A model generated the notes under the pieces. It ran no database searches. It had not been told where the DNA came from and saw only the letters and a program-made list of their open reading frames with translations. DNA of 41,624 bases from Candidatus Omnitrophota bacterium (lineage in GTDB: Bacteria; Omnitrophota; Gorgyraeia; Zapsychrales; Zapsychraceae), in contig JAKQLT010000082.1 in the NCBI GenBank assembly GCA_029567025.1, positions 1 to 41,624 on the forward strand, written 5' to 3'. Shown piece after piece: positions 2,714 to 39,463 of the stretch (its first letter is position 1; each line of letters begins with the position of its first letter). Both the position numbers and the translations under genes were made by a program.

Positions 2714-4231
2714 ATGGTAAAACAAATCGGTTTTGATAATGAAAAATATCTTAAAGAGCAAACAGAAGCTATTCTCGAGCGTGTTAAAAAAATCGGCAAT
2801 AAATTATATTTGGAATTCGGAGGAAAGCTTTTGTTTGATTATCATGCCTCGCGCGTCTTGCCTGGATTTGATCCAAATGTCAAAATGCGTCTTTTACAGC
2901 AATTAAAAGATCAGGCAGATATTGTTTTATGTATTTATGCCGGAGATATTGAGAGACGTAAAGTTCGCGCAGATTTTGGTATTACTTATGATGCGGATGC
3001 TTTAAAGCTTATTGATGACTTAAAAGACAGAGGGATTAGTATTCGTGCGGTTGTGATTACACGTTTTAATGATCAGCCGGCGGCCAAAATTTTTAAGAAT
3101 AAGTTAGAACGCCAAGATATTACTGTTTATACGCATGCCTTTACACGAGGTTATCCGACGGATATTGATGTCATTGTCAGCGATGAAGGTTATGGAGCGA
3201 ATCCTTATATCGAAACAAAAAAAGATCTTGTGATTGTTACAGGACCTGGCCCGGGAAGTGGAAAATTAGCCACCTGTTTATCGCAACTTTATCATGATTA
3301 TCGTAAAGGCGTTAAATCGGGTTATGCTAAATTTGAAACATTTCCTATTTGGAATCTTCCTTTAAAACATCCTGTGAATGTTGCTTATGAGTCTGCTACG
3401 GCGGATATTCGCGATTACAATATGATTGATCCGTTTCATTTGGAAGCCTATCAACAAGTCGCGGTGAATTATAACCGTGATGTTGAGGTTTTCCCGGTGT
3501 TAAAACGTATTTTGGAGAAAATCACAGGAACAGATTCGATGTATTGTTCCCCGACGGATATGGGAGTGAATCGCGTGGGCTTTGGAATCGCCGATGATGA
3601 GGTGGTCCAAGAAGCTTCTCGCCAAGAAGCGATTCGGCGTTATTTTCGTTATGCGTGTGAGTATGTGATGGGATTAGTTGATAAAGAAACTGTTCAGCGG
3701 GCAGAATTAATCATGAAAGAATTAGGCGTACGGCAAGAAGATCGGGCTGTTGTTGGCCCGGCCTATCAGGCGGCGGCTGAAGCCAAAGAACGAGGCAAGG
3801 GGCATGAGAAAATTTTTTGCGGCGCGGCGATTGAATTAGAAGACGGAACCATTATTACAGGAAAAAATTCTGAGAATATGCACGCCGCATCGAGCTTAAT
3901 ATTAAACGCGACGAAACATTTGGCGGATATTCCTGATAAACTTCATTTATTGCCGCGCAATCTTGTTGAATCCGTCGCTAAATTAAAAAAGGAAATTATT
4001 AATAATAAACGCGCGAGTTTGGATTTGGATGAAACCTTGGTCGCTTTAACCATTAGCGCGATGACCAATTCCGCGGCGGAACTCGCTTTAGGAAAACTTA
4101 AAGAATTAAAAGGCTGTGAAGTCCATATGACGCATATTCCAACGCCTGGTGATGAGGCGGGATTAAAAAAGTTAGGGATTAATTTAACGACCGACCCGAA
4201 TTTTGCTTTTGGCGGTCTTTATGAAAATTAA
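2714..4231 (+). CDS. DUF1846 / UPF0371 family protein (505 aa), function unknown
   Basis: It aligns end to end, from memory, with UPF0371 proteins. Shared blocks include GFDNEKYLKEQTEAILERV, KLYLEFGGKL, RVLPGFDPN, TGPGPGSGKLATCLSQLYHD, SGYAKFETFPIWNLPLKHPVN, AYESATADI, FPVLKRILEKI, SPTDMGVN and GKNSE. Confidence 0.85.
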   Translation: MVKQIGFDNEKYLKEQTEAILERVKKIGNKLYLEFGGKLLFDYHASRVLPGFDPNVKMRLLQQLKDQADIVLCIYAGDIERRKVRADFGITYDADALKLIDDLKDRGISIRAVVITRFNDQPAAKIFKNKLERQDITVYTHAFTRGYPTDIDVIVSDEGYGANPYIETKKDLVIVTGPGPGSGKLATCLSQLYHDYRKGVKSGYAKFETFPIWNLPLKHPVNVAYESATADIRDYNMIDPFHLEAYQQVAVNYNRDVEVFPVLKRILEKITGTDSMYCSPTDMGVNRVGFGIADDEVVQEASRQEAIRRYFRYACEYVMGLVDKETVQRAELIMKELGVRQEDRAVVGPAYQAAAEAKERGKGHEKIFCGAAIELEDGTIITGKNSENMHAASSLILNATKHLADIPDKLHLLPRNLVESVAKLKKEIINNKRASLDLDETLVALTISAMTNSAAELALGKLKELKGCEVHMTHIPTPGDEAGLKKLGINLTTDPNFAFGGLYEN

Positions 4232-9096: not shown

Positions 9097-12000
9097 ATGA
9101 GGCAAAAAAGATTTCATTTCATCAATAAGTTTTTTTTAATTGTGATAGTATTCTGCTTTTTTGTAACAACTATCATCCCTCCGAGTTTTGCGCAAGCGAT
9201 TTATCTTCCTAATCCGGGAGTAATGATTCTTACGTCTGTGGGTTATAAACCAGCGATTGTAAAAGGCATAACGATTTATCCGGATAATCCACTGCAGTTT
9301 GATTTTATTATTGATTCTGGCGAAGAACATATAGAAGGAGCGCTTTTAAAATCTGAATCGAATAAAATGATCAAATATTTTTTGGCTTCATTAACAGTTC
9401 CAGAGAAAGAAATGTGGGTAAACCTTTCCCCGTACGAAAAAAATAGAATTATTCCGGAAAGTTTTGGCTTGACGGAAATGGGCCGCGATCTTCTTGCCCA
9501 AGATTATATTTTAAAACAATTAACAGCGTCTTTGATGTATCCAGAAGAAGAATTAGGAAAGAAATTCTGGGACAATATTTACGCGCGGGCTAAAAAAGAA
9601 TTTAATATGGCCGATATTCCCGTTGATGCTTTTAATAAAGTGTGGATTATTCCTGAAAAAGCAGTTGTGTATGAACATGGCAATAGCGCGTTTGTGGTTG
9701 ATGCGAAATTAAAAGTTATGTTGGAAGAAGATTACGTTGCTTCGCAAAAGATAAAAGACTATAGACCAGAGACCATAGACCAGGCTGACCAATTTCCGAC
9801 GGAAAAAAATCTTTTAGCCTCTGGGCCTTGGTCTTCAGTCTCAGATCTGATAAGGGCTGTTATTGTTCCTGAAATTGAAAAAGAAGTTAATGAAGGTAAA
9901 CATTTTGCGAATTTGCGTCAAATTTATAATTCTATGATTTTAGCCGCGTGGTTTAAGAAGAATTTGAAAGAATCGTTGCTTGGCAAAGTTTATGTTGATC
10001 AAAATAAAGTTAAAGGTATTGATTTGGCTGATAAGAATTCCAAATTAAAAATTTATGAACAATATTTACAGGCATTTCAAAAAGGTGTTTACAATTATAT
10101 TAAGGAAGAATACGATCCGTATCGCCAAGAAATCATTCCTAAAAAATATTTTTCCGGCGGAGTAACCACGCAAATGTTAACGGATCAAGTTTTAGAAGAA
10201 AAAAATGATTCGGCCATGTTAAGCGAGAAAGAAAAAAATGGTCTTGAGACTTCAGATTTAATGGTAACGGTTAGATTATTTGAAAATCAAAAAGATAAAG
10301 CTATAACTGTCCAGCACATTGATGACCCTAAAGTATTAGCTCCCGTTAGAGAATTAGCCAAGCAAATTCATAGTCAAATTATGAATCCAGCTTTTGATAT
10401 TATCGCGGCTGTGGAGCCAGAACAAATTATGGTTGGCTCTGAGAGAATTTTTAAAGATAAAATAGTAACAGCTGAGATGAAGAAATATCTTAATGAGCGT
10501 TTGAATGAGCTTGAAAGAGTGATGAATATTTTAAAATCCAGAAAAGATGATAATCGCTTAAGGAATGCTTTGGTGCATACTCTTTTAAAGCCGCATCAAT
10601 CGGGCAACGTCTTTTTTAATAAGGAAGCTCATATTTTAGACGCGATGAGGGCTTTGAGGATCCATATTGATTTATTAAAAGAAGGAACTGTTATTGAGTC
10701 GAAAAGAGGAACGCGAGAGCTTGATTCTTTTAAATCGGATTTAGAAGGTATTATGAACGGGCTTATTTTTTTAGAAAATATTTTTAAGCATAACAGCGAT
10801 TTAAAACTTTTAACAAGTAATGAATCTGTAGAATTTTTTGATATGGATATGCGTTTCGAAAGGGATTATGCGATGTTATCTCATGGGCAGATTATCAGCG
10901 ATGCGAACGTTTTAGCGCTGGTGAAAGAATTGGCTAAGAATATTTTAGATGGGATCAAACCGAAACAGAGAGCCATGTTAGAAATTCTTACCATGTTAGA
11001 GGAAAATATGATGATCGACGATAATCTTATAGAAAATCTTAATATTCTTAAGGATAATGCTGAAAAAATCGCGCAAAGTATACGATTATCAAGAGAAAAT
11101 GCTTTTGAAAATATTTTAGTTCGCACCTTAAATGGACATGATTTCAATATCGCCGCAGATATTCCTAACGCGGTTCATTCAATCGTATTAACGGTTGATA
11201 AATTGATCAAAAATAAAGGAGAGTTTACTTCTGAAGAAGAAACGGAATCTTTATGGTCTAATTATGAAAAAATAATGAAAGCCAAAGAGTTTTTGACAAA
11301 AATTGTTTCTCATGAAGACTTGCAATTAAGGGTTATTGTTTCGAACATTGCAGGAGTGGAAACAACATTTTTTGATATGCATATTCCTAAAATCATTGAG
11401 AATAGTCCAGAGACAAAAAGAGATCAACTAAATGCTATAGAGCAAAAATTTAATCCGCTTCATAGCACTATTTTAATGGTTGATGATGATGCGCAGGCTT
11501 TAGGGCTTTTAGGCGGTATAGTGCATGATCAAGGATATAATATCATTTTCGCTTTAGATGGGGTTGAAGCTTTAGAGAAGTTAAAAGAAAATAAGACGGT
11601 AGGATTGGTTATGACAGATATGTATATGCCTCGAATGACAGGAATAGAATTGATGGACGAAATGATGGCGGATGATAATTTTAATAAAATCCCTGTGGTA
11701 ATGTTGACAGGTGCAGCTACAGACCAAATACAAAATATCAGAAATAGAATAGGAGAGGATAATTATTCTTTACGAGAGGTTTTTGAAAAGCCATTTGATG
11801 TAAGTTTAGTTATTAAAACAATAGAAGACATTCTTCCTGTTGAAAAGCCCTCATCTGTAGAGACAAAAGGGCGAATAGTTAATGATATAAAAACGTTAAG
11901 CCCGTTGAGAAAAGCGGCTAAAGAAATTTATCAAACGATGAGTTTGGGGTTAGAAAAAATTAAGAATTCTGTGACGGTTCTTTCTAAAAATCAGGAATCT

Positions 12001-13158
12001 TTTTTAGAGGTTTCAAAAGAGGCGCAAGCGATTACTAAAACGCTTCGCGATATTTTAGCGTCTATTCAATCGCAAAAGTCTGAAGAAGATGTTGTGATTT
12101 CTTTAATGAACATGTTAACAAAACGTATGCCTCAAGAATTTGATGATGAATTAAATGCTAAAGATGTTGTTAATACTCTTTTTTCTATAATGATCGAGGG
12201 GGAATCGGTTTTTTCTCCCGAATATTTAGACGAGGCGACTTTGCAAGATGTGAAAAATTATATTTCTCATGCGCAACATGTGGTTAATTATTTAGAGCGT
12301 GTTTTGGCCTTTGTTAATAGGATAGCGCATGCCCAAGAAGTAGAAATTAAAGAATACAGTGTTCCCAATACAAAAATGGCTTTTTTTGTCTTAGATGTTT
12401 TATTAACAGCGCCTGCCCTTACGGAAATGCCTTTTCTGGAAGGCGAGGATTTAATTCCTTTAAAAGAGGTTGCAGGTTTTTTGAAAAAAACGATTGAGAA
12501 AAATTTAGATATTATAGAAAAAAACGAGGAGTTATTAAAAGAAGATTGGGACAAGTATTTAAAAGCTATTACCGCCGTTCTTGTCGCGATTAAAAATGAT
12601 GTTTCTAACGCTGTTTTTTTAAATGATAATGAGGCGGTTGCCGCTTTACATCCTATTTTGAATGGAAAATTATATCATTCGGGAGTTCAGGGCAAAGATG
12701 TTTTTGATATTCCTAACGAAATAGGGAAAGGGTTAGGATTAGCCGAAATAACAGAAAGTTCGTTTCTTCCTAAAGAGAATCTAGAAAGAAATAGAATGAT
12801 GTATCAAAGATTTCTTGTTATGGCTATAGAGCATATAGAAAATATCTTGGAGTTTTTAGATAAAATTGAACAAAGTTCTAAAATTTTGTTAGAGCCAGTA
12901 ACTGTCAGTGGCGAACGATATGTTTTATTTCAATTTGAGTCTTCTTCTGATTTAGCGATGAATGCTGGGCAAAATGATTCGGTGGGCGGTATTGATTTGG
13001 ATTCAGGATATATGGATCTTCAAATCAAACGTGATGAAAACGGTGTTGCCTTAACGCTTCCGTTTCAATCGTTAGATCATATGAAGATTGATGGATTTAT
13101 TCCGGCTATTATCAATATCAAACCGATTGAAAATATTCATCTTTTGTTAGGTTTTTAA
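9097..13158 (+). CDS. Large (1353 aa) signal-peptide protein of unknown function with an embedded REC domain and four internal ~180-aa repeats
   Basis: This is a long uninterrupted ORF. The N terminus, MRQKRFHFINK + FFLIVIVFCFFVTTII + PPSFAQA, looks like a Sec signal peptide. The conserved N-domain contains WVNLSPYEKNRIIPESFGLTEMGRDLLAQDYILKQLTASL. See the findings for the repeats. Confidence 0.85.
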   Translation: MRQKRFHFINKFFLIVIVFCFFVTTIIPPSFAQAIYLPNPGVMILTSVGYKPAIVKGITIYPDNPLQFDFIIDSGEEHIEGALLKSESNKMIKYFLASLTVPEKEMWVNLSPYEKNRIIPESFGLTEMGRDLLAQDYILKQLTASLMYPEEELGKKFWDNIYARAKKEFNMADIPVDAFNKVWIIPEKAVVYEHGNSAFVVDAKLKVMLEEDYVASQKIKDYRPETIDQADQFPTEKNLLASGPWSSVSDLIRAVIVPEIEKEVNEGKHFANLRQIYNSMILAAWFKKNLKESLLGKVYVDQNKVKGIDLADKNSKLKIYEQYLQAFQKGVYNYIKEEYDPYRQEIIPKKYFSGGVTTQMLTDQVLEEKNDSAMLSEKEKNGLETSDLMVTVRLFENQKDKAITVQHIDDPKVLAPVRELAKQIHSQIMNPAFDIIAAVEPEQIMVGSERIFKDKIVTAEMKKYLNERLNELERVMNILKSRKDDNRLRNALVHTLLKPHQSGNVFFNKEAHILDAMRALRIHIDLLKEGTVIESKRGTRELDSFKSDLEGIMNGLIFLENIFKHNSDLKLLTSNESVEFFDMDMRFERDYAMLSHGQIISDANVLALVKELAKNILDGIKPKQRAMLEILTMLEENMMIDDNLIENLNILKDNAEKIAQSIRLSRENAFENILVRTLNGHDFNIAADIPNAVHSIVLTVDKLIKNKGEFTSEEETESLWSNYEKIMKAKEFLTKIVSHEDLQLRVIVSNIAGVETTFFDMHIPKIIENSPETKRDQLNAIEQKFNPLHSTILMVDDDAQALGLLGGIVHDQGYNIIFALDGVEALEKLKENKTVGLVMTDMYMPRMTGIELMDEMMADDNFNKIPVVMLTGAATDQIQNIRNRIGEDNYSLREVFEKPFDVSLVIKTIEDILPVEKPSSVETKGRIVNDIKTLSPLRKAAKEIYQTMSLGLEKIKNSVTVLSKNQESFLEVSKEAQAITKTLRDILASIQSQKSEEDVVISLMNMLTKRMPQEFDDELNAKDVVNTLFSIMIEGESVFSPEYLDEATLQDVKNYISHAQHVVNYLERVLAFVNRIAHAQEVEIKEYSVPNTKMAFFVLDVLLTAPALTEMPFLEGEDLIPLKEVAGFLKKTIEKNLDIIEKNEELLKEDWDKYLKAITAVLVAIKNDVSNAVFLNDNEAVAALHPILNGKLYHSGVQGKDVFDIPNEIGKGLGLAEITESSFLPKENLERNRMMYQRFLVMAIEHIENILEFLDKIEQSSKILLEPVTVSGERYVLFQFESSSDLAMNAGQNDSVGGIDLDSGYMDLQIKRDENGVALTLPFQSLDHMKIDGFIPAIINIKPIENIHLLLGF
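11467..11835 (+). other. Receiver (REC, CheY-like) domain inside the 1353-aa protein (aa 791-913)
   Basis: All canonical REC positions are present. The sequence ILMVDDD forms the acidic pocket. LVMTDMYMP carries the putative phospho-acceptor Asp841 (codon 11617-11619). VVMLTGAA provides the conserved Thr and FEKPF the conserved Lys. Confidence 0.8.
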
Positions 13159-13289: not shown

Positions 13290-14309
13290 ATGATTAATAT
13301 AGGTATTATTGGTTGTGGGTATTGGGGACCGAATTTACTTCGTAATTTTACGGGTCTATTGGATTGCAGTGTTAAAATAGTTATTGATATTGACTATGCG
13401 CGCAGAAATTATGTGAAAGAGAAATATCCCCAAATCGCCACAAGTTCTCAAGATAAAGATCTTTTTTCTGATGAAATTGATGCTGTTGTTATTGCAACGC
13501 CTGCCCAAACGCATTATTCTCTTGCCCGAGAAGCTTTGGAAAATAAAAAACATGTTTTAGTCGAGAAGCCTTTAGCGATGAGCGTTAAAGAGGCGCGAGA
13601 ATTAATTCATTTGGCGAAAAAAAATAAGCTAATCCTTATGGTGGGACATACTTTTGAATATAATAAAGCGGTTCAGGAATTAAAAAGACAAATAAAGAAA
13701 GATATCATTGGCACGCCGTATTATTTATACTCGCAACGTCTTAATTTTGGGATTGTCCGTCGTGATATTAACGCGTTATGGAATTTGGCGCCGCATGATA
13801 TTTCTATTTTTATTTATTTGTTAGAGGCCATGCCTATTTCGGTTTCTTCTTGTGGGTATGATTTTATCCAAAAAGGTATTGAAGATGTTGTTTTTATGTC
13901 TTTAGAATTTCCTGGTCATATTGCGGCGCATATTCATGTTAGTTGGCTTGATCCCAGCAAAGTAAGGAAAATGACCATTGTGGGAAGCAAGAAAATGATG
14001 ATTTATGATGATATGGCGAATGAGAAAATTAAAATATTTGACAAAGGAATTCGACGAGAAAATATCAAAGATTCTTTAGGAGCTTTTGATGATTTTAAAA
14101 AATACCAGCTTTTGCAGCACGCCGGAGATGTTACGATTCCTAAAATTAATTTTGAAGAACCTTTAAAAGAAGAATGCGCTCATTTTGTTGAATGTATTTT
14201 AAAAGATAAAAAACCTTTAACTGATGGAGAAAATGGTTTGCGTGTTGTTCAAGTTTTAGAAGCCGCGCAAAAGTCCTTAGAACAAGAAGGAAAGAATATA
14301 AAAATATGA
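13290..14309 (+). CDS. Gfo/Idh/MocA-family NAD-dependent sugar-nucleotide oxidoreductase (WbpB-like)
   Basis: It has an N-terminal Rossmann motif IGIIGCGYWGPN, an EKPLA motif and a conserved HVSWLDP block. It overlaps a DegT aminotransferase gene by 4 nt. Confidence 0.85.
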   Translation: MINIGIIGCGYWGPNLLRNFTGLLDCSVKIVIDIDYARRNYVKEKYPQIATSSQDKDLFSDEIDAVVIATPAQTHYSLAREALENKKHVLVEKPLAMSVKEARELIHLAKKNKLILMVGHTFEYNKAVQELKRQIKKDIIGTPYYLYSQRLNFGIVRRDINALWNLAPHDISIFIYLLEAMPISVSSCGYDFIQKGIEDVVFMSLEFPGHIAAHIHVSWLDPSKVRKMTIVGSKKMMIYDDMANEKIKIFDKGIRRENIKDSLGAFDDFKKYQLLQHAGDVTIPKINFEEPLKEECAHFVECILKDKKPLTDGENGLRVVQVLEAAQKSLEQEGKNIKI

Positions 14310-15400
14310 TTCCCTTTGTTGATTTAAAACGACAGTATCAAACGATTAAGCCTGAAATCGATAGGGCGATACAAAAATGCATTGATGAAACCGCGTTTAT
14401 TAGCGGAAAGTATGTTGAGAAATTAGAAAAGGATTTCGCATCATTAACAGGCGCAAAGTTCGGTGTTGCCGCAAGCTCTGGCACAAGCGCGCTTCATTTG
14501 GCCTTAATGGCGTTAAGTGTTGGCAAAGACGATGAAGTGATAGCTCCAGTTAATACCTTTGTCGCGACGACGGAAGCGATTGTGCATGCGGGCGCTAAAA
14601 TTAAATTAGTGGATATTGATGAAAAGACATATCATTTGGATATTCAAAAATTAAGGAAAGCTATTACTAAAAAAACAAAAGTAATTATTCCCGTTCATTT
14701 GTATGGCCAGCCGTGTCGCATAGATGAGGTTTTAAAAGTAGCTCGAGAATATCATTTGAAAGTGATTTTTGATGCGTGCCAGGCGCATTTTTCAGAATTT
14801 AAAGGTCAGCCGATTGGGAAATTTGGCGATTGTGTGTGTTATAGCTTTTATCCAGGTAAAAATTTAGGCACGTATGGCGACGGAGGATTAGTGACAACCA
14901 ATGATGCCGTTTTGGCAAAGTTTATGAAAATGACATCGGACCACGGCCGTACGGGAAAATACGAGCATCTGATCGACGGATATAATTATCGTTTATCGGA
15001 GATTTTTGCGGCTATTCTTAGCGTGAAATTAAAATATTTGTCGCAATGGACTCAAAGCCGACGAGAGAATGCAAGAATGTATAACGATTTGTTAAAAGAT
15101 TTAAAGGTTATAACGCCGTTTGAGTCGGATGATGTGATGCATGTTTATCATTTGTATGTCATCCGCGTAAAAAATCGTGATAAAGTTCGAAACGCCTTAG
15201 CTAAGGACGGCATATCGACGGGGATTCATTATCCTCTGCCGCTTCATTTGCAGAAAGTTTATAAACATTTAGGATACAAGAAAGGAGATTTTCCTGTAGC
15301 CGAAAAATGCGCCAAAGAGATTTTGTCGCTTCCGATGTTTGCGGAATTAACAGAAGAAGAAATAAGGCAAGTGGTCGCGACTCTTAAAAAAGTTTTATAA
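14306..15400 (+). CDS. DegT/DnrJ/EryC1/StrS-family PLP-dependent sugar aminotransferase (WbpE-like)
   Basis: Family blocks include FISGKYVEKLEKDFA and GTSALHLAL, plus the SFYPGKNLG block carrying the PLP lysine and GDGG. Confidence 0.9.
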   Translation: MIPFVDLKRQYQTIKPEIDRAIQKCIDETAFISGKYVEKLEKDFASLTGAKFGVAASSGTSALHLALMALSVGKDDEVIAPVNTFVATTEAIVHAGAKIKLVDIDEKTYHLDIQKLRKAITKKTKVIIPVHLYGQPCRIDEVLKVAREYHLKVIFDACQAHFSEFKGQPIGKFGDCVCYSFYPGKNLGTYGDGGLVTTNDAVLAKFMKMTSDHGRTGKYEHLIDGYNYRLSEIFAAILSVKLKYLSQWTQSRRENARMYNDLLKDLKVITPFESDDVMHVYHLYVIRVKNRDKVRNALAKDGISTGIHYPLPLHLQKVYKHLGYKKGDFPVAEKCAKEILSLPMFAELTEEEIRQVVATLKKVL

Positions 15401-15411
15401 AGGACGATAAA

Positions 15412-16356
15412 ATGTATCGCAATAAAAAAATAGCTCTTGTTATTCCCGCCTATAATGAAGAAAAGCTTATTAAGCCTACTTTAGAAAATGTTCCTGATCT
15501 TATTGACAGGATTTATGTGGTTGATGACGGCAGTAAAGATCGGCTCGCTCAAATTGTCGAGCAGATCGCCTCAAGAAATGAGCGCATAAAACTTTTGCGT
15601 CATAAGAAAAATGAAGGCCCTGGCCAGGCGATTATTACAGGATATTTAGAGTCTTCAAAAGACAATTATGATATTACGGTTGTTATCGGCGGGGATTATC
15701 AGATGCCGCTTAATGAGGTTAACCGTTTTTTGGATCCGTTAATTGATGGGCAAGCGGATTACACAAAGGGAAATCGATTTTTTGTGTGGGAAAAAACACG
15801 CGTTAAAATGCCTAAAATTCGTATTTTAGGAAATATTATTATTACGGCCTTAACAAAAATAGCTTCTGGTTATTATAAAATTATGGATGTCGTTGACGGT
15901 TATACGGCTATCACGAAAGAAGCAATTGACCTTGTAGATTGGAGCCGTGCATGGAAACGTTATGGTTATCCTATGGATTTTCTCATTCGTTTAAATGCGT
16001 ATAGTTTACGGGTGAAAGATGTGCCACGCACGCCGATTTATCTTAAAGGCGAGCGCCAGTCGCAGATTAAAGGATTACGTTATGCCTTGCGTATTTCGCC
16101 GATGCTTGTGCGTGGATTTTTTTGGCGTATGGTTTTTAAATATATTTATCTTGATTTTCATCCGTTGGTTTTTTTCTTTTTCTTTGGGATGATCCTTTTC
16201 CCTCTGGGAGTAGGATATGGAATCCATTTATTTATCAAACAACTTTTTAATGTCAATGTCACCGGTGGGCAAGCGATTTTTTGCGCATTAAATATTATTA
16301 CCGGAGTGCAATTCCTTTTATTCGGCATGTGGTTCGATATGGAAGCCAGCAAATAA
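15412..16356 (+). CDS. Family 2 glycosyltransferase with C-terminal membrane helices (GtrB/polyprenol-phosphate sugar transferase-like)
   Basis: The N terminus is GT-A type (VIPAYNEEKLI, VVDDGSKD). Two hydrophobic helices lie at the C terminus (HPLVFFFFFGMILFPLGVGY, ALNIITGVQFLLFGMWF). Confidence 0.8.
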   Translation: MYRNKKIALVIPAYNEEKLIKPTLENVPDLIDRIYVVDDGSKDRLAQIVEQIASRNERIKLLRHKKNEGPGQAIITGYLESSKDNYDITVVIGGDYQMPLNEVNRFLDPLIDGQADYTKGNRFFVWEKTRVKMPKIRILGNIIITALTKIASGYYKIMDVVDGYTAITKEAIDLVDWSRAWKRYGYPMDFLIRLNAYSLRVKDVPRTPIYLKGERQSQIKGLRYALRISPMLVRGFFWRMVFKYIYLDFHPLVFFFFFGMILFPLGVGYGIHLFIKQLFNVNVTGGQAIFCALNIITGVQFLLFGMWFDMEASK

Positions 16357-16366
16357 TTTCTCAGTT

Positions 16367-17503
16367 ATGAATTCACCTTATCAAATATGTTCCCGTTGTG
16401 TTTTAGATACAACAGTTGCTGATATCCGTTTTGATGAAAAAGGCGAATGCCATTATTGTCATATTCATGATGCTTTGGGAAAAGAATTCCCATTAACATT
16501 CGATGGCCAAAAGAAATTTTTAGCAATTATTAATGAGATTAAGCAAAAAGGACACAACAAGAAATATGATATTATCGTCGGAGTTAGCGGAGGACGCGAC
16601 AGTACGTATGCTCTTTTAAAAATAGTTGAATTAGGATTAAGGCCTTTGGCGGTTCATTTGGATAATGGCTGGAATTCTGAAATAGCTGTAACCAATATTA
16701 AAAACGCGACTAATAAACTTGGCGTTGATTTGTTGACGCATGTTTTAGATTGGGAAGAATTTAAGGATTTGCAGCTTTCTTTCTTAAAAGCGTCTGTGCC
16801 TGATGCTGAAATTCCGACAGATGTCGCTATTCACGGGATTTTACATAAAATAGCCGCGCAGGAACATATTTCTTATGTTGTTTTCGCGCATTCTTTCCGC
16901 ACCGAAGGCGTTGCGCCATTAAGCTGGACGTATATGGATGGGGAATATATCAAAAGCGTTCAGAAAAGATTCGGCCGAAGAAAATTAAAAACATTTCCGA
17001 ATATGACGGCGTTGGATGTATTTTATTATCGGTTTATAAAAAATATTCGAGTGGTTCCTTTGTTAGCCTATCTGAAATATGACCAAAAAGAGGTAACAGA
17101 AAGACTGTCTAAAGAATTGGGCTGGAATTATTACGGCGGGCATCATCATGAGTCGTATTACACGCACTTTTTCCAATCGTATTATTTGCCGAAGAAATTT
17201 AATATTGATAAACGCAAAGTCGAATATTCCGCGCTTATTCGTTCCGGCCAGATGACGCGTCAAAAGGCGTTGGATGAAATTCAAAATCATCCGTATCCGT
17301 ATGATGAAGAGCTCGTCCGTTACGCTATAAAGAAATTAGGATTAACAAAAAAAGAATTCGATGATATTATGGCGGTTTCGAATAAAAGTTTTCGCGATTA
17401 TTCGACATATTATCCATTTATTAAAGCTTTAAAGCCTTTATTAGCTGTTGTTCAAAAATTGAATTTTTTCCCTAAACATCTTTATTTGAAATTTTTAGGA
17501 TAA
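16367..17503 (+). CDS. N-acetyl sugar amidotransferase (WbuX/PseA-like, PP-loop ATPase)
   Basis: The N terminus has the Cys cluster CSRCVLDTT...FDEKGECHYC. A PP-loop VGVSGGRDS is present. Length and layout are typical of the acetamidino-sugar amidotransferase family. Confidence 0.82.
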   Translation: MNSPYQICSRCVLDTTVADIRFDEKGECHYCHIHDALGKEFPLTFDGQKKFLAIINEIKQKGHNKKYDIIVGVSGGRDSTYALLKIVELGLRPLAVHLDNGWNSEIAVTNIKNATNKLGVDLLTHVLDWEEFKDLQLSFLKASVPDAEIPTDVAIHGILHKIAAQEHISYVVFAHSFRTEGVAPLSWTYMDGEYIKSVQKRFGRRKLKTFPNMTALDVFYYRFIKNIRVVPLLAYLKYDQKEVTERLSKELGWNYYGGHHHESYYTHFFQSYYLPKKFNIDKRKVEYSALIRSGQMTRQKALDEIQNHPYPYDEELVRYAIKKLGLTKKEFDDIMAVSNKSFRDYSTYYPFIKALKPLLAVVQKLNFFPKHLYLKFLG

Positions 17504-17507
17504 GATT

Positions 17508-18263
17508 ATGTTGTTGCCAAGAATTTTTCCATGTCTGTTATTAAAAGATAACGGACTTGTTAAAACGATTCAATTTAAAAATCCGACATATTTGGGCGAT
17601 CCTATTAATGCCGTTCGTATTTTTAACACAAAACAAGTTGACGAGCTTATTTTTCTGGATATTACAGCGACGAAAGAAAATCGTACGCCGAATATTGAGT
17701 TTATCAAAAAAATCTCCGAAGAATGTTTAATGCCTTTTACCGTCGGAGGAGGCATAAAGACAGTGGAAGATATTCGTTTATTGTTAAATGCCGGTGCTGA
17801 AAAAGTGGCTGTCAATACTGCGGCTATTTTAAATCCACAGCTGGTAACGGATGCCGCGCGGCTTTTTGGTTCACAGGCCATTGTCGTCTCCATAGACGTC
17901 AAAAAAATTTTTAATCAATATCGTGTTTATATTCAGGGTGGGCAAAAGGCGATGCCCTTTGATCCTGTTCAGTGCGCGATAAAGATGGAAGAATCCGGCG
18001 CAGGCGAAATTTTTTTAAATGCTATTGATCGAGATGGAACCATGCGCGGTTATGATCTGGATTTGATAAAAAAAGTGACGCAAGCAGTTAAAATTCCTGT
18101 TATTGCCTGCGGCGGTTGCGGAAAATTGGAAGATTTAAAGCAAGCTGTCAAAGAAGCTGGCGCTTCAGCCGCGGTGGCGGGAAGTTTTTTTGTGTTTCAT
18201 GGGAATCGACGGGCGGTCCTTATTAATTTTCCTTCCAAAGAAGAATTGGAGAAAATTCTATAA
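17508..18263 (+). CDS. hisF: HisF-like cyclase subunit, glycan-modification paralogue (WbuZ/HisF2-type)
   Basis: The sequence follows the HisF TIM-barrel pattern (RIFPCLLLKDNGLVKT, FLDITAT, FTVGGGI, VSIDVK, EIFLNAIDRDGTMRGYD, PVIACGGCG). It sits directly after the sugar amidotransferase rather than in a his operon. Confidence 0.85.
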   Translation: MLLPRIFPCLLLKDNGLVKTIQFKNPTYLGDPINAVRIFNTKQVDELIFLDITATKENRTPNIEFIKKISEECLMPFTVGGGIKTVEDIRLLLNAGAEKVAVNTAAILNPQLVTDAARLFGSQAIVVSIDVKKIFNQYRVYIQGGQKAMPFDPVQCAIKMEESGAGEIFLNAIDRDGTMRGYDLDLIKKVTQAVKIPVIACGGCGKLEDLKQAVKEAGASAAVAGSFFVFHGNRRAVLINFPSKEELEKIL

Positions 18264-18264
18264 T

Positions 18265-19350
18265 ATGAATCAGAAAACAAAACAGGTATTATTTTTTTTT
18301 CTTAACCATCCGTCGGATTATCATTTGTTTAAGAATGTTATTAACCTTTTTATACAACAAGGTTTTTTTGTAAAAGTCGGTATTGTAACGAAGGATGTCT
18401 TGGAAGAGTTGGTTAAAGAGGAAAAATGGGACTATGTGAATCTTTTTCCTGAAGGCCGACGGCGTAAAAATTGGCCGATTATCTTAAATGCCATAGTAAA
18501 TTTATTTATAGCAGAAATACGTTTTTTTCAATTTATTAAAAAGAACAACCCCTTTGTTTTGATAGGATCAGAAGGGACATTGGCGCATATAGGATTTTTA
18601 TTACGGATTCCTTCCTTATTGTTTAATGAAGATGATACCGTAATGACGCCTGAAAATTATTTGTTTTATCCTTTTGCGACTAAAGTGATTATTCCTTCAT
18701 GCGTTGATAAGGGAAAGTGGCTTCATAAAAGAATTTCTTATAATGGTTATCATGAACTCGCGTATTTGCATCCGAGATATTTTATGCCTGATGAGAATGT
18801 GGTTAAAGCGTTTCATCCGTCTATGGAGCCCTATTTTATTTTAAGACTTGTGGCCTTAACCGCAAGCCATGATTCCGGAAAAAAAGGCATTACCAATCAA
18901 ATGGCGGTTGATATCATTAAAAGATTAGAGAGGCATGGCAAGGTTTTTATTAGTTCCGAGAGGGAATTGCCTTGGGATCTTCAACCTTATCGCCTTCAAA
19001 TTCACCCTAAAGATATTCTTCATGTGTTAGCGTTTGCTCAAATATTAATTGGGGATAGTTTGACTATGGCGGAAGAAGCGGCTCTTTTAGGAACTCCTTC
19101 TATTCGACTCGATGATTTTGCGGGAAAATCAGGATATTTAAATGAATTGGAAAAAATTTATGACTTAACCTATGGATTTAAATCGGATGAGATAGAAGGA
19201 TTTTTTAATAAAATAGATGATGTCTTAAGTTCTCCTAATTCCAAAAGTCATTGGAAAAATAAAGTGAAAATTTTATTGGTTGAAAAAATAGATGTTGTGG
19301 ATTTTATGTTTGATTTAATCAAGTCGTATCTGCCCTTAAAAGCAGAATAA
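18265..19350 (+). CDS. DUF354-family protein (GT-B/epimerase-like fold, unknown function)
   Basis: I place the start at ATG 18265, 2 nt after the hisF-like stop. The ORF-track start at 18190 would overlap hisF-like by 74 nt. The C-terminal block IGDSLTMAEEAALLGTPSI resembles the DUF354 signature as I recall it. Confidence 0.55.
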   Translation: MNQKTKQVLFFFLNHPSDYHLFKNVINLFIQQGFFVKVGIVTKDVLEELVKEEKWDYVNLFPEGRRRKNWPIILNAIVNLFIAEIRFFQFIKKNNPFVLIGSEGTLAHIGFLLRIPSLLFNEDDTVMTPENYLFYPFATKVIIPSCVDKGKWLHKRISYNGYHELAYLHPRYFMPDENVVKAFHPSMEPYFILRLVALTASHDSGKKGITNQMAVDIIKRLERHGKVFISSERELPWDLQPYRLQIHPKDILHVLAFAQILIGDSLTMAEEAALLGTPSIRLDDFAGKSGYLNELEKIYDLTYGFKSDEIEGFFNKIDDVLSSPNSKSHWKNKVKILLVEKIDVVDFMFDLIKSYLPLKAE

Positions 19351-19386
19351 AAAATCCAACAGATTTCGTAATTCTAAACGAATGAT

Positions 19387-20442
19387 ATGAACATTTTAAT
19401 TGTCGCTAAAGTTTCAGATTATAAAATTATGACGACTCTCGAGCCTTTGATCCAGAGTGAGCGTATAGAGAAAATATATCTTGTTCGTCGTTTTCCCATT
19501 AGCCTTCCTAAAGTTGTTTGTTATAGCCCGCCGTTGTTTTTACGCTGGAATGTAATTTTATCAGAGATATGGCGGATTGTTGCCATATTCTTTTTATGTT
19601 TTTTAAAGGAAGTACGATATCTTATTGGCATTCATTATTATTATCATTGTATTTATGTTGGTTTTTTTGCTCAACTTTTTTCAAAGCCATATATTTTTTC
19701 TTTGATTGAGAACCCGCAATTATATAGAAAAAGTAAAATATTTTCTTATTTTGTTCGTCGGGCAGACGCTGTTATGGTGCGCGGAAATATTTCAAGAGAA
19801 TTTCTCATGCGAGATATTAAAGTTTCTTCTGAAAAAATACATATCCTTCTCGATATTTTAGAAAACGATATAGCGGAAAAATTAAAAGAAAATCAAAAAA
19901 AATATGATTTTGTTTTTTTGGGTTATTTTCGTCCTGAAAAAAGAATTGATGTCCTGATACGTTCGTTTTATCGGGTCATCGAAGAATTCCCTCGGGCAAC
20001 GTTATTATTGATCGGTGAGGGGCCATTAAAAAAGGCGATGTTAAACCTTATAAAATATTATGATTTAGAAAAAAATGTTTCTTGTTTTGATCGTTTTATT
20101 TCCCAGGAAGAGGTTTATTCTTATTTGTGGCAATCAAAGACAATGATTATGACATCAGAAACTGAAGGATTGCCGACAGTCTTGTTAGAGGCCATGTTAT
20201 GTGAAATTCCTTTTATCGTTCCTGATGTGGGCGATATAACGGATTTGGCGAAAGATAATGAAAATGCTCTTGTGGTGACGCCTTTAAATGAAGATGAATT
20301 TAAACACGCGTGTTTGCGCATTTTAAAAGATGAGGCCGTCTATCAGAAACTAAAAAAAGGGATTATAGAAGAAAAACAAAGGCGTTTAATAGAGCATGAT
20401 GTTTCGCGTATTACGGCTTTATGGGAAGAAGTTCTAAAGTGA
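19387..20442 (+). CDS. Family 4 glycosyltransferase (GT-B, Glycos_transf_1)
   Basis: The C-terminal half has FLGYFRPEKRIDVLI, LLLIGEGP and the E-x7-E block SETEGLPTVLLEAMLCEIPFIV. Confidence 0.75.
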   Translation: MNILIVAKVSDYKIMTTLEPLIQSERIEKIYLVRRFPISLPKVVCYSPPLFLRWNVILSEIWRIVAIFFLCFLKEVRYLIGIHYYYHCIYVGFFAQLFSKPYIFSLIENPQLYRKSKIFSYFVRRADAVMVRGNISREFLMRDIKVSSEKIHILLDILENDIAEKLKENQKKYDFVFLGYFRPEKRIDVLIRSFYRVIEEFPRATLLLIGEGPLKKAMLNLIKYYDLEKNVSCFDRFISQEEVYSYLWQSKTMIMTSETEGLPTVLLEAMLCEIPFIVPDVGDITDLAKDNENALVVTPLNEDEFKHACLRILKDEAVYQKLKKGIIEEKQRRLIEHDVSRITALWEEVLK

Positions 20443-24081: not shown

Positions 24082-24864
24082 ATGGATTATATGATGAAAC
24101 AAATAACAAATAGGTTTTTTTTAGTGGTAAGCCAAATGGGTGATGCCATTTATTTTTTGATGGATGTTTTGAGGAATATTTTTAAAGGCCGTGTCCGTTT
24201 TAATGAGGTTTTAAAACAGAGTTATGAACAAGGATGGCAATCGGCTGTTATTGTCGCGCTGACTTCTTTCGCGTCTGGTGCGGTTTTAGCATTACAAGGC
24301 CATGTGGTTCTTTCGCGGTTAGGCGCCAAAGAGTATATTGCCCAACTCGTCGCTTTATCTCTTTTAAGGGAAATGAGTCCAGTTTTTACAGCGATTATTT
24401 TTTCTGCTAAAGCAGGCGCACGCATTACCGCGGAATTAGGCACCATGAGTGTTAATGATCAGATTTTAGCCACGCGGACGATGGGTGTTGACCCGATGGA
24501 ATTTTTAGTTGTCCCACGGTTTTTGGCTTGTTTCTTAGTGTTGCCAATTTTAACACTTATTTCTGAAATTGTTGGGATTTTGGGCGGATATTTTATTGGC
24601 GTCTATCAGGCGAATATTCCGGGAGTTTTTTATATTAATCAGACCATCAATGCGGTGCGATTTGTTGATTTTTTTAGCGGATTCATTAAAGTTTTCTTTT
24701 TTGCTATTTTGATCGGATGGATCTGTTGTTCGCGTGGATTCACAACCAAAGGAGGATCGTTAGGTGTTGGGAAATACACGACCGAAGCTGTGGCGCAGTC
24801 GATAATTTTAGTTATTATTTTTAATACGATTTTAACAAAAATTATTTTAACATTTTGGGGATAA
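24082..24864 (+). CDS. mlaE: MlaE-family ABC transporter permease
   Basis: The 260-aa multi-pass protein has MlaE-type blocks (REMSPVFTAIIFSAKAGARITAELGTM, DQILATRTMGVDP). MlaF and MlaD genes follow. Confidence 0.85.
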   Translation: MDYMMKQITNRFFLVVSQMGDAIYFLMDVLRNIFKGRVRFNEVLKQSYEQGWQSAVIVALTSFASGAVLALQGHVVLSRLGAKEYIAQLVALSLLREMSPVFTAIIFSAKAGARITAELGTMSVNDQILATRTMGVDPMEFLVVPRFLACFLVLPILTLISEIVGILGGYFIGVYQANIPGVFYINQTINAVRFVDFFSGFIKVFFFAILIGWICCSRGFTTKGGSLGVGKYTTEAVAQSIILVIIFNTILTKIILTFWG

Positions 24865-24877
24865 AAAGGAGACGGCT

Positions 24878-25216
24878 GTGTTAAAAAATATTTTTAAGAA
24901 TTTATTTTTTATGAGTTTTTTTCTTTTGTGTGCCGGATGCACAGGTTTTCAAGGCGGAGGCAGTGCTTTGTCCAAACATCCTTTTTCAACCATAGAAGCA
25001 GATTGGATTCGCAATGGAGAACCTATTATCTTTGAGGAAGAGTTATGGTTTCCCGCCGATGATATTGAAGTTTTATCCGATATGGAAGTTTATAAGGTTG
25101 GCGAAGTTCAGGGTATTTATGTTTTTGTCGATAAGCGTGATGTGCGACCGTATAATCGGCTTTATACGAAGTTTGATAAAAATCAGTTTCGTTATTTTCA
25201 GAAAAAGAGTCCATGA
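24878..25216 (+). CDS. Small putative lipoprotein embedded in the mla operon
   Basis: It starts at GTG 24878 with an AAGGAG site 7 nt upstream. The signal peptide ends in a lipobox-like LLCAGC. Its stop overlaps the mlaF start by 4 nt. Confidence 0.55.
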   Translation: MLKNIFKNLFFMSFFLLCAGCTGFQGGGSALSKHPFSTIEADWIRNGEPIIFEEELWFPADDIEVLSDMEVYKVGEVQGIYVFVDKRDVRPYNRLYTKFDKNQFRYFQKKSP

Positions 25217-25929: not shown

Positions 25930-25942
25930 CGAGGATAATCTT

Positions 25943-39117: not shown

Positions 39118-39463
39118 GGATTTATTTGATGTCAAAGAATTTTTAGAACGTGTTCAAGATGATAAAGAGCTTTTAGTTGAACTTATTGGTATTTATTTGG
39201 AAGATTATGAAGGCAAGCGTAAAATATTAGGAGAAGCCATCGTTAATAATGATTATGAAGCAGTGCGAAGCGTGGCGCATTCTTTAAAAGGGTCTTCAGG
39301 GAATATTTCCGCGAAATCTTTACGCGAATTATTTTGGAAACTTGAAGATATGGGAAAAGCGAATAATTTAAATGGCGCGTCAGATCTTTTGCAGAAAGTG
39401 GATGGGATCTTCGAGCAATTCGTCAAGCGTGTTTCCAATTTAAAAGAAGAAATGGGTGTTTAA
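39110..39463 (+). CDS. Hpt (histidine phosphotransfer) domain protein
   Basis: The 117-aa protein from ATG 39110 overlaps the kinase stop by 8 nt. It has the Hpt signature AHSLKGSSGNISA (His57, codon 39278-39280). The ORF-track start at 39032 is an extension inside the kinase gene. Confidence 0.85.
   Translation: MNEDLFDVKEFLERVQDDKELLVELIGIYLEDYEGKRKILGEAIVNNDYEAVRSVAHSLKGSSGNISAKSLRELFWKLEDMGKANNLNGASDLLQKVDGIFEQFVKRVSNLKEEMGV

Follow-up and report, generated by a model that had tools for sequence, protein, structure and literature searches.

The window, by which we mean the whole 41,624-nucleotide stretch of DNA that was analysed, carries a complete ORF at 9097..13158 (+) encoding 1353 aa plus a stop, exactly where a preliminary sequence-only reading had placed it. 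The product runs, in order, through a signal peptide, an N-domain, two helical modules (R1, R2), a receiver (REC) domain, two further helical modules (R3, R4) and a C-tail, and, REC excepted, neither sequence nor fold comparison linked any of these parts to an entry of Pfam, NCBIfam or PDB. The query's neighbours in the window are housekeeping genes; MlaEFD is encoded there too, and the cell is therefore taken to be a diderm with a periplasm. Such a gene might be viewed as an annotation artefact or a decaying gene, that is a chance ORF, a fused gene call or a pseudogene without coherent function, as no strong Shine-Dalgarno sequence is visible 5' of the ATG and the R modules are orphan sequences. 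This view can hardly be maintained: the frame is open without interruption for 4 kb, both ends of the query share 50-60% identity with thousands of homologues of the same architecture, the catalytic residues of REC are all intact, and an independent assembly yielded the same protein (P0001, 100% identical, a 5'-truncated record that NCBI names 'response regulator [Ca. Omnitrophota]'). It is effectively refuted by the homologues, the architecture and the REC residues.

As had been proposed, the N-terminus is built like a cleavable Sec signal peptide. From hydrophobicity, charge and a cleavage site shared across the family, a Sec/SPase I-type signal peptide was assigned to aa 1-32 (9097..9192, +), with a basic n-region (MRQKRFHFINK), an uncharged core of 16 residues and a c-region (PPSFA/QA, the slash marking the predicted cut); neither a Tat motif nor a lipobox was found at the query N-terminus. 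Cleavage is likely between A32 and Q33, with an alternative after A34 (nt 9198). Family conservation favours the former over the cut after A-Q-A initially suggested, since the A/Q junction is present in 67/120 members, with S, A, G or V at -3, and the predicted cleaved length across the family is ~37 aa. The segment at aa ~8-30 is the only hydrophobic one in the query, in agreement with the earlier call that a further TM helix is absent; 52 of 120 members likewise have none beyond the signal peptide, and in the remaining members the extra segment is mostly the hydrophobic end of the tail.

With 16-20 residues the hydrophobic core exceeds the usual length in cleaved signal peptides, and it may instead serve as an uncleaved anchor. 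The protein would then be a membrane-tethered scaffold whose bulk, REC included, faces the cytoplasm, the N-domain and tail arranging enzymes or regulators at the membrane as a metabolon or signalling hub, and REC accepting phosphoryl groups in the conventional way from the cell's own kinases or Hpt proteins. We consider this unlikely, although the length of the core speaks for it. The positive-inside rule opposes it, the net charge being +3 ahead of the core versus 0 behind, as do the conserved helix-breaking PP near the predicted cleavage site, the A/Q site, whose -3 and -1 residues are small, and the lack of a second TM segment that would return the chain to the cytoplasm.

Behind the signal peptide lies a conserved N-domain (aa 35-399, 9199..10293, +), suspected before and here found to be genuine, with 50-60% identity across thousands of proteins, 58 invariant columns, a variable loop at aa ~215-250 and the signatures LPxPG, WVNLSPYE, MGRDLLAQDYxLKQ, EKEVNEGKxFAxLRQ and KKYFSGG. 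Its AF2 model is alpha/beta (pLDDT 65, pTM 0.65), and it had no PDB sequence match, no fold match in PDB or BFVD and no Pfam or NCBIfam family. At the other end, the 72-aa C-tail (aa 1282-1353, 12940..13155, +) that had been singled out for its VGGIDL is equally genuine, being conserved in 120/120 top homologues and in each complete family ORF of 79 genomic loci, always at the extreme C-terminus. GGIDL itself occupies aa 1297-1301 (nt 12985-12999), and the query ends in the hydrophobic stretch GFIPAIINIKPIENIHLLLGF, without the charged extension of 10-50 aa that most homologues carry beyond the tail. The tail matched no known Pfam or NCBIfam family and was not confidently folded alone in structure prediction; neither structure predictions nor fold comparison gave a functional clue for the frame.

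These two ends are the halves of a frame common to more than 4,700 Omnitrophota proteins, and the idea of a one-off architecture has to be given up. Among 8,000 candidates scored there were 4,746 family matches, nearly all from Omnitrophota and with many family loci per genome (at least 599 matches), apparently a very large and undescribed paralogous family. Its members combine a Sec-type signal peptide, an N-domain of ~360 aa, a hypervariable middle and a tail of ~65 aa. Both N-domain and tail are present in 120/120 best matches and the middles differ, measuring 359-1931 aa among the top matches, with a median of 29% of a middle matching any other member in the 120 best. In the 79 loci complete family ORFs always have one N-terminal N-domain and one C-terminal tail, never two N-domains, and same-strand tandem arrays of family genes are common. 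The label 'giant' given to the query holds only in a relative sense; family ORFs in these loci reach more than 3,700 aa, and 1353 aa is small by that measure. Domains recognised in the middles are of cytoplasmic type and include PGK, GAPDH, PGM, UGPase, radical SAM, GGDEF, HTH, DnaJ and REC, with glycolytic/gluconeogenic and sugar-nucleotide enzymes among the classes; REC-bearing members make up 12/120 of the best matches. It had been allowed from the outset that the architecture might prove common and already annotated: common it is, but it is not understood. Across the 79 loci no gene for secretion, translocation or a protease accompanies the family with any consistency, a point in favour of the tethered scaffold, and the best neighbour cluster consists of generic REC genes (13/79 loci).

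The query's own middle carries as payload one catalytically intact REC between 2+2 orphan helical modules, R1 (aa 400-588, 10294..10860, +), R2 (aa 589-766, 10861..11394, +), R3 (aa 921-1101, 11857..12399, +) and R4 (aa 1102-1281, 12400..12939, +). When Smith-Waterman scores were compared with 300 shuffles, R1-R2 (z=11.0), R3-R4 (z=4.7) and R1-R3 (z=3.9) each had 0/300 shuffles at the observed score, R2-R3 was marginal (z=2.4), and R1-R4 (z=1.6) and R2-R4 (z=-0.5) were not significant taken alone. This links the modules in a chain, R2-R1-R3-R4, and the claim that all four are clearly related stands in this chained and slightly weaker form. No repeat is present among them at the DNA level. AF2 gave each module a short beta-hairpin, 5-6 long helices and a closing beta-hairpin at low confidence (pLDDT 57), which fits the earlier picture of helical modules that end in a hydrophobic strand. 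As supposed, they belong to no named domain in Pfam or NCBIfam, and no relative was detectable among 1.84 billion representative proteins.

The REC domain (aa 791-913, 11467..11835, +) is complete, as first noted. Pfam PF00072 matches aa 792-904, scoring 57.5 bits where the cutoff is 30.2, and alignment to CheY shows the catalytic/switch quintet intact: the acidic pocket D796/D797(/D798), with D796 equivalent to D12 and D797 to D13, the phospho-acceptor D841 (nt 11617-11619; D57), T871 (T87) and K898 (K109). A hybrid HK + Hpt phosphorelay lies at 36802-39463 of the window without a nearby terminal receiver, which would suit the tethered scaffold, where it could feed REC; no evidence in the window connects the query to either protein of this relay, which lies 26 kb downstream.

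Short motifs recur where the modules meet. The D-x-A-M motif reported at three borders was recovered by motif scan at aa 371, 590 and 1285: D371-S-A-M-L375 at the C-terminal edge of the N-domain (10207..10221, +), D590-Y-A-M-L594 at the start of R2 (10864-10878, +) and D1285-L-A-M in the C-tail (12949-12960, +). Across the family D-x-A-M is enriched, with 152 occurrences versus 10 +/- 2.5 in shuffles; written as D.[AS]M[LIVM] it was observed 152 times versus 10.4 +/- 2.8, and a second motif, [AST]SSP[IVLM], 112 times versus 1.5 +/- 1.2; per 100 kaa the densities are 81.5 in the family versus 4.2 in non-family ORFs for the former and 60.1 versus 1.3 for the latter. The two are nearly mutually exclusive (49 and 35, both in 4), D-x-A-M-L being used in the query's lineage and A-S-S-P-V in others, and they take equivalent positions, behind the N-core, 15-18 aa ahead of GGIDL and at domain-sized spacing between. 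It is conceivable, if doubtful, that they are processing sites at which the chain is cut into modules.

The query's sole cysteine, C20, sits within the signal peptide. Cysteine makes up 0.076% of residues in the 120 best matches and 0.116% in 121 family ORFs, versus 1.07% for 462 ORFs outside the family at the same loci and 1.22% for the 29 other ORFs of the window, an about 10-fold depletion relative to other proteins of the same genomes; the mature part has no cysteine at all in 82/120 members. Ordinary proteins with a signal peptide from these genomes contain 0.71% (31% of them without any) and those lacking one 1.23% (5% without any); the family lies at the extreme of the exported class. 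Exported proteins are known to exclude cysteine as an adaptation (PMC2823432). The payload domains are almost all without cysteine, a PGK carried as cargo having 0 where 120 stand-alone PGKs have a median of 3, which suggests export from the producing cell, although other causes of the depletion are conceivable in principle. Catalytic cysteines are kept despite it: the mature chain of P0018 contains just two, C600 and C603, both within the GAPDH motif SCASCTTN, and C658, C662 and C665 of P0113 form the radical-SAM CxxxCxxC motif. Such a purge is absent from cytoplasmic proteins of the same genomes and parallels their ordinary exported ones, which counts against the tethered scaffold. The location of REC outside the cytoplasm, raised earlier as a topological oddity, is a real paradox, now with family-specific cysteine exclusion as added evidence.

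We consider it probable, on heuristics and composition, that the query is an exported frame-and-payload carrier. The chain would pass through Sec unfolded and be cleaved at A32/Q33, leaving the cysteine-free mature protein, REC included, outside the producer's cytoplasm, so REC would act there. The N-domain and tail would form a shared handling apparatus for sorting, anchoring, assembly or onward translocation, and the middle would be the functional payload. Radical SAM, GAPDH, PGK and REC depend on ATP, NAD, SAM, Fe-S assembly and phosphodonors, a dependence which favours the tethered scaffold; for an exported carrier, the need for cytoplasmic cofactors together with catalytic integrity makes another cell's cytoplasm the most coherent destination. 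Delivery into another cell is put forward tentatively and is on balance improbable. The recipient would be the host or prey of episymbiotic or predatory nanobacteria, in which REC may be phosphorylated by foreign kinases, Hpt proteins or acetyl phosphate and so switch the flanking helical modules; Omnitrophota have been inferred to be host-dependent (PMC10066038). Counting against delivery, the payloads are chiefly housekeeping-type enzymes, an odd set for effectors. Should producer genomes lack ordinary cytoplasmic copies of the payload enzymes, the payloads must act in the producer's cytoplasm.

Alternatively, the exported protein could remain periplasmic or be displayed on the surface, with its N-domain or tail as the anchor, with payload enzymes pre-processing extracellular or host-surface substrates and REC and the helical modules serving in binding or structure without a phosphorylation switch. 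This envelope-resident display shares the N-terminal and cysteine evidence with the carrier model, the payloads are biased to sugar metabolism, and the hydrophobic beta-like end of the tail, which is not predicted to fold autonomously, would be apt to insert as a strand into a partner or a structure of the envelope; extracellular sugar pre-processing has also been proposed by West-Roberts et al. (10.1101/2023.11.21.568195). However, PGK, GAPDH, radical SAM, GGDEF, DnaJ, HTH and REC are without obvious extracytoplasmic substrates, cofactors or partners, and the retention of Fe-S cysteines and of the REC pocket under anti-cysteine pressure argues for real catalysis or phosphorylation. We regard envelope display as quite unlikely.

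Among the closest parallels to the carrier are the multi-enzyme giants/Archaeovorins, likewise from Omnitrophota, with PGM, starch synthase, GT1, REC, radical SAM, GGDEF, PPDK and HEAT domains, common signal peptides and cytoplasmic-type domains predicted beyond the membrane. West-Roberts et al. (2023 preprint, 10.1101/2023.11.21.568195) predicted an 'extracellular region' for glycolytic-type domains in giant Omnitrophota proteins, which, as they conceded, a missed TM segment might explain, and Nielsen & Lui (2026 preprint, 10.64898/2026.06.07.730766), in whose 'multi-enzyme' giants the family's payload Pfams also dominate, place TM-only giants facing the cytoplasm; both points favour the tethered scaffold. 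The giants in both preprints are at least 10,000 aa, whereas the query, at 1353 aa, carries one payload unit, and the N-domain/C-tail frame, cysteine purge and border motifs are not described in either.

The query REC resembles canonical response regulators (CheY-like, PF00072) in scoring above the Pfam threshold and in all five catalytic/switch residues. It differs in lying mid-chain in a signal-peptide-bearing protein with a cysteine-free mature part, flanked by orphan helical modules, without a recognised output domain and with no kinase adjoining the gene. Cargo of the T9SS combines a Sec signal peptide, functional domains and a conserved C-terminal domain of ~80 aa. The family likewise joins a Sec signal peptide and a small conserved C-terminal element to otherwise unrelated proteins and has Gln at the predicted +1 in most members, as described for T9SS cargo of Bacteroidota (PMC5837995). 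However, T9SS CTD models did not match the family tail, which is not predicted to be an autonomous beta-sandwich, and T9SS cargo comes from another phylum and lacks a conserved 360-aa N-domain. Two-partner secretion/CdiA polymorphic toxins share a conserved N-terminal domain behind a signal peptide, polymorphic payloads and many paralogues. Unlike them, the family N-domain is modelled as alpha/beta, not beta-helix, and matched no TPS/haemagglutination-activity domain, no TpsB-like neighbour was found in the 79 loci, the tail is conserved and the payloads are not toxins.

MARTX toxins of Vibrio and relatives place conserved N- and C-terminal regions around interchangeable effector domains that act in the cytoplasm, and the chain is cut at short inter-domain sites once delivered; large translocating RTX toxins are notably cysteine-poor. 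They use a C-terminal type I secretion signal and target eukaryotic cells, whereas the family has an N-terminal Sec signal peptide and mostly housekeeping-type payloads, and domain searches found neither RTX repeats nor a C80 cysteine-protease domain in the query. The likeness would thus be one of logic only, by analogy: a frame around interchangeable payloads, short border sites and low cysteine.

The open reading frame that the sequence-only reading had placed at 9097-13158 (+) was recovered in exact agreement and encodes a protein of 1353 aa. The public record of this protein (P0001; 1248 aa, on a 4.7-kb contig) begins at Met106 (MWVNLSPYE...), so that the signal peptide and 70 residues from the start of the N-terminal domain are missing (window 9097-9411); the window contains the first complete version. 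Its sole known Pfam domain is a response-regulator receiver (REC; PF00072, 57.5 bits against a cutoff of 30.2 bits) at aa 792-904. Sequence searches of the PDB returned CheY and RR468 at E values of 1e-10 to 1e-11, and neither these nor the NCBIfam searches gave a match beyond receiver domains. In alignment with CheY, residues D796, D797, D841, T871 and K898 correspond to D12, D13, D57, T87 and K109, and since all five positions align to the CheY set the receiver is complete in its catalytic residues.

Searching 5.8 billion proteins with this sequence as query gave at least 4,746 significant matches (8,000 candidates scored), nearly all from Candidatus Omnitrophota, with 25-35% of the query covered and 50-60% identity per match. 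The 120 best matches all share the two ends of the chain, an N-terminal domain (N-domain; query aa 35-399) and a 72-aa tail at the extreme C-terminus, and their middles (359-1931 aa) are largely unrelated to one another, a BLAST match in another member covering a median of 29% of a middle. We define the family here by a ~360-aa N-domain following a signal peptide and a ~65-aa C-terminal tail, and refer to these ends as the frame and to the middle as the payload. The tail (query aa 1282-1353) carries the signature GGIDL...GFxPVIINxxP...LLG, with the consensus GGIDLNPxLLDLQIKRDGNGVPLPLxQQPIxxMxIxGFxPVIINITPxxNLPxLLG, and the query has both frame elements. A scan of GTDB species genomes gave at least 599 matches and 580 of these were confirmed, every one in a MAG of Omnitrophota, including MAGs that bear the label 'uncultured Planctomycetales'; among the matches listed, single genomes hold many dispersed family loci. 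In 79 fetched loci every complete family ORF has exactly one N-terminal N-domain and one C-terminal tail, none has two N-domains, and family genes often form arrays of two or three on one strand. With dozens of genes of 1-4 kaa per genome, the family may occupy a sizeable share of Omnitrophota coding capacity.

Scanned separately against Pfam and NCBIfam at E<=10, neither the N-domain nor the tail gave a match, and an N-domain profile found nothing at E<=10 among PDB sequences. An AF2 model of the N-domain, of limited confidence, is alpha/beta (pLDDT 65, pTM 0.65); in Foldseek searches of the PDB and BFVD its best TM was <=0.13, with nothing at E<=0.001. No published description of the family was found in the open-access literature searched. 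A loop of the N-domain that is variable and modelled at low confidence, and in which homologues carry insertions of very different length, contains at window 9756-9783 (aa ~220-229) a short tandem repeat, AGACCAT in 3.9 copies or a 14-mer in two. At the other end most homologues extend 10-50 aa beyond the tail (P0004, P0010, P0020, P0023, P0024, P0074 and P0086 are examples), many finishing in the charged, recurrent ...K-A-R-E-P-E-E-[IV]-S-x-L-N or ...[EQ]-L-S-x-[LI]-x, which could be an additional C-terminal signal. The query has no such extension and stops directly after LLLGF (window 12940-13155).

The middles carry a broad range of domains. Precomputed Pfam annotation lists PGK, GAPDH plus aldolase, PGM, UGPase, glucose-6-P isomerase, FBPase, PPDK, isocitrate lyase and malate synthase, starch synthase, acyl-CoA dehydrogenase and radical SAM, and further GGDEF, sigma-54 AAA, HTH, DnaJ, GNAT and HEAT; REC lies in the middle of 12 of the 120 best matches. 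The PGK payload of one member (P0020, aa 596-1070) shares no more than 25-30% identity with any PGK among 5.8 billion proteins and exceeds normal PGKs in length by ~80 aa, a divergence that makes payload domains seem old, fast-diverging lineages and not recent captures of housekeeping genes. No stand-alone PGK was found within the fetched loci and the window, a small sample. Public names follow the payload: P0069 (2021 aa) is a 'phosphoglycerate kinase', P0031 a 'glucose-6-phosphate isomerase', P0048 and P0051 are each a 'UTP--glucose-1-phosphate uridylyltransferase', P0044 is an 'acyl-CoA dehydrogenase', and other family proteins appear as 'response regulator'. Metabolic reconstructions of Omnitrophota may therefore miscount family genes as cytoplasmic pathway enzymes, and if the family is exported, pathways scored as cytoplasmic might be exported, signal-peptide-bearing, Cys-purged copies.

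In the query, two modules on either side of the receiver (R1, aa 400-588; R2, 589-766; R3, 921-1101; R4, 1102-1281) had been described as clearly related helical repeats. The repeats are real, with support that is uneven across pairs: Smith-Waterman z scores against 300 shuffles were 11.0 for R1-R2, 4.7 for R3-R4, 3.9 for R1-R3 and 2.4 for R2-R3, and the R1-R4 and R2-R4 pairs were not significant, so the four modules join as a chain R2-R1-R3-R4. There is no DNA-level repeat among them, which makes the duplications old and led us to reject recent tandem duplication. Their helical character agrees with AF2 at low confidence (pLDDT 57), each module being modelled as 5-6 long helices between a short opening beta-hairpin and a closing one. 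The model of R3-R4-tail (pLDDT 57, pTM 0.32) had no Foldseek match in the PDB and is too weak for a claim of a new fold. None of the 120 best matches was found to contain these modules. A module profile matched no family member among the 119 others, and in a search of 1.84 billion representative proteins it recovered only the query's own entry, P0001. R1R2 and R3R4, scanned apart against Pfam and NCBIfam at E<=10, gave no match. By these searches the modules correspond to no named domain and have no detectable homologue in the sets covered.

The N-terminus of the query points to export. The query has a single hydrophobic segment (aa ~8-30), and its putative signal peptide has the Sec/SPase I anatomy throughout: a basic n-region (MRQKRFHFINK), an uncharged hydrophobic core (FFLIVIVFCFFVTTII) and a helix-breaking c-region (PPSFA-Q-A) with small residues at -3 (S) and -1 (A); the bond between A32 and Q33 is the likely cleavage site. 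Across the N-termini of 120 members net charge falls from +3 ahead of the core to 0 behind it, the conserved core is of the type YRILSAFIAFTFIFS followed by a helix-breaking PP, 67 of 120 have an A-Q junction whose -3 residue is S, A, G or V, and the predicted cleaved peptide is ~37 aa. The Gln at +1 in the query is reminiscent of the Q-rule for SPase I substrates of Bacteroidota, which the paper describing it limits to that phylum (PMC5837995). Tat export was rejected, as no member (0/120) has a Tat-like motif (S/T-R-R-x-F-L-K), and so was a lipoprotein, the query having no lipobox (L-x-x-C) and only 1 of 120 members a lipobox-like motif. A second hydrophobic segment is absent from 52 of the 120; in most of the others the sole further one is the moderately hydrophobic tail end. 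The main rival overall is a cytoplasm-facing tether, in which the same segment would hold the chain on the inner face of the membrane; the topology evidence argues against a location of the receiver in the producer's cytoplasm, and we consider the tether unlikely.

The tail end itself (in the query, window 13093-13155, GFIPAIINIKPIENIHLLLGF) has KD19 values of 1.6-2.0, scores as a TM helix on simple scales and is the only 'extra TM' in most members. It may feed 'SP+TM' calls, and may add to the pattern of about one TM per 1000 aa in the giant proteins of Omnitrophota, provided that the giants consist of the same units. An outer-membrane beta-barrel or autotransporter was rejected, since there is no barrel-length beta region and the Phe that ends the query is not conserved, most homologues running past the tail. 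The window also encodes, at 24082-26617, MlaE, an ABC ATPase (MlaF-like) and MlaD, an outer-membrane lipid-asymmetry system, and the organism is therefore a diderm.

A second line of evidence comes from amino-acid composition. Cysteine makes up 0.076% of the 186,472 residues of the 120 homologues and 0.116% of 121 family ORFs from the loci, against 1.07% in 462 non-family ORFs of the same loci and 1.22% in the 29 other ORFs of the window. The mature part is Cys-free in 82 of 120 members, and the only Cys of the query, C20, lies inside the signal peptide. By a rough signal-peptide heuristic, ordinary signal-peptide proteins of the same genomes have 0.71% Cys (31% Cys-free) and proteins without a signal peptide 1.23% (5% Cys-free); signal-peptide-bearing proteins being already Cys-poor, the family stands at the extreme of the exported class. 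Catalytic Cys residues escape the purge: in P0018 (2016 aa) the only ones left are C600 and C603, within the GAPDH active-site motif SCASCTTN, and P0113 retains C658, C662 and C665 of the radical-SAM CxxxCxxC motif. One cargo PGK has 0 Cys, where 120 stand-alone PGKs have a median of 3. Cys exclusion is a documented adaptation of exported proteins (PMC2823432), and the purge argues strongly, and independently of the signal peptide, for export. That catalytic Cys residues are spared shows apparent selection on the payload enzymes to work. If export is true, the rule 'purge every Cys but catalytic' would be a clean, testable evolutionary signature and could serve to detect enzymes that are exported or translocated in further uncultured lineages.

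The payloads also appear to be punctuated. A D-x-A-M motif had been noticed recurring at module borders of the query, and it holds as a feature of the family: D-x-[AS]-M-[LIVM] was observed 152 times against 10.4 +/- 2.8 in shuffles (81.5 per 100 kaa in the family, 4.2 in non-family ORFs). A second motif, [AST]-S-S-P-[IVLM], was observed 112 times against 1.5 +/- 1.2 (60.1 and 1.3 per 100 kaa). The two seldom share a protein and come close to excluding each other: among 120 proteins 49 carry only D-x-[AS]-M, 35 only [AST]-S-S-P, 4 both and 32 neither. Both types sit 40-60 aa past the RKYFSGG core of the N-domain and 15-18 aa before the GGIDL of the tail, and between these ends they recur at domain-sized intervals (median 226 aa). 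In the query the D-x-A-M motif occurs at aa 371, 590 and 1285, sites that would split the chain into N-domain, R1, R2-REC-R3-R4 and tail. Because two unrelated short motifs take equivalent positions in different lineages, they resemble recognition sites more than structural caps, and processing or modification sites co-evolving with a lineage-specific factor would fit.

Upstream of the gene are CarB and a glutamine amidotransferase; directly downstream (13290-20442) follow a GFO/IDH/MocA oxidoreductase, a DegT aminotransferase, GT2, an unassigned 378-aa ORF, a HisF-like cyclase, DUF354 and GT1, a sugar-modification run that is probably a cluster of surface-polysaccharide or nonulosonic-acid type. 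Across the 79 loci no neighbour recurs except generic REC genes (13/79), and no dedicated secretion, protease or partner gene was found near family genes. No kinase gene adjoins the query gene. At 36802-39463, 24-26 kb away, a hybrid histidine kinase (3x PAS, HisKA, HATPase_c, REC; 771 aa) is followed by an overlapping 143-aa Hpt protein (39032-39463), and the vicinity of this phosphorelay lacks a terminal response regulator. The Hpt protein had been suggested as a possible phosphodonor for the REC of the query, and we found no evidence linking the phosphorelay to that REC. A promoter and terminator scan gave counts no different from those in shuffles. Elsewhere in the window, a full-length member of DUF1846, a family that is conserved but of unknown function, lies at 2714-4231 between a DEAD-box helicase and CarB, its N-terminal domain scoring 572 bits and its C-terminal domain 181 bits. 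No Pfam match at E<=1e-5 was obtained for five ORFs of 143-453 aa (two at 28178-29967 (-), and those at 31850-32821, 39498-40208 and 16367-17503); the pair at 28178-29967 are the only sizeable minus-strand genes of an otherwise co-directional window.

Taken together, we propose that an unfolded, Cys-free chain would be exported through Sec and cut between A32 and Q33, with the N-domain and tail acting as a common handling module, and that the receiver and helical modules probably reside outside the producer's cytoplasm. If so, a receiver whose phospho-acceptor site is complete does its work outside the producing cell, and we know of no textbook two-component scheme that allows this. Radical SAM, GAPDH, PGK, GGDEF and REC domains are useless without cytoplasmic cofactors, and Sec passage would strip an Fe-S cluster. 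These considerations make the cytoplasm of another cell the most coherent destination; as the actual end point past the inner membrane we put it forward tentatively and on balance lean against it. Of the readings that include export, the chief alternative is display of the protein as an envelope resident, with the chain remaining outside the producer's cytoplasm and the payloads away from such cofactors. Delivery into another cell is in line with proposals that Omnitrophota live by host dependence or predation (PMC10066038; 10.1101/2023.11.21.568195). Its widest form, in which the frame would carry competent, Cys-purged payloads into host or prey throughout the phylum, to be cut at the punctuation sites and to rewire carbon metabolism and phosphorelays, is rather doubtful; were it true, the query would be a trans-kingdom or trans-cell response-regulator effector. 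Should export alone hold, the family becomes a candidate for the molecular link, so far missing, that connects these uncultured nanobacteria with their hosts.

Several known systems share the logic of this arrangement. MARTX toxins likewise have conserved termini and swappable payloads, with cytoplasm-acting effectors and inter-domain cleavage; the query has an N-terminal Sec signal in contrast to the C-terminal T1SS signal of MARTX/RTX, and Pfam and NCBIfam searches of the whole protein and its parts returned REC only, with no RTX/MARTX repeats or C80 cysteine-protease domain. T9SS cargo resembles the family in combining a Sec signal with a small conserved C-terminal element, and the tail alone matched no T9SS CTD (Por_Secre_tail; NCBIfam T9SS target domain) in Pfam and NCBIfam at E<=10. 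TpsA/CdiA proteins also join a conserved N-terminal domain to a polymorphic payload; the N-domain has no Pfam match to the TPS (haemagglutination activity) domain, and the 79 loci hold no conserved transporter neighbour of TpsB type. Judged on its sequences and domains, the family fails the defining tests of all three, and its payload repertoire differs from theirs. Nearest is the literature on Omnitrophota giant proteins, which lists the same payload Pfams; glycolytic-type domains of the giants are there 'predicted to be in an extracellular region' (10.1101/2023.11.21.568195), and its accessible parts do not describe the frame, the Cys purge or the punctuation motifs. The payload Pfam repertoire of the giants (the Archaeovorin/multi-enzyme class) overlaps that of the frame family, but the query, at 1353 aa and with a single recognisable payload domain, is far from a giant of >=10,000 aa with many tiled enzyme domains. 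A new delivery system is a substantial minority possibility, and we rate the frame family as a variant within a known kind, the modular exported carriers.
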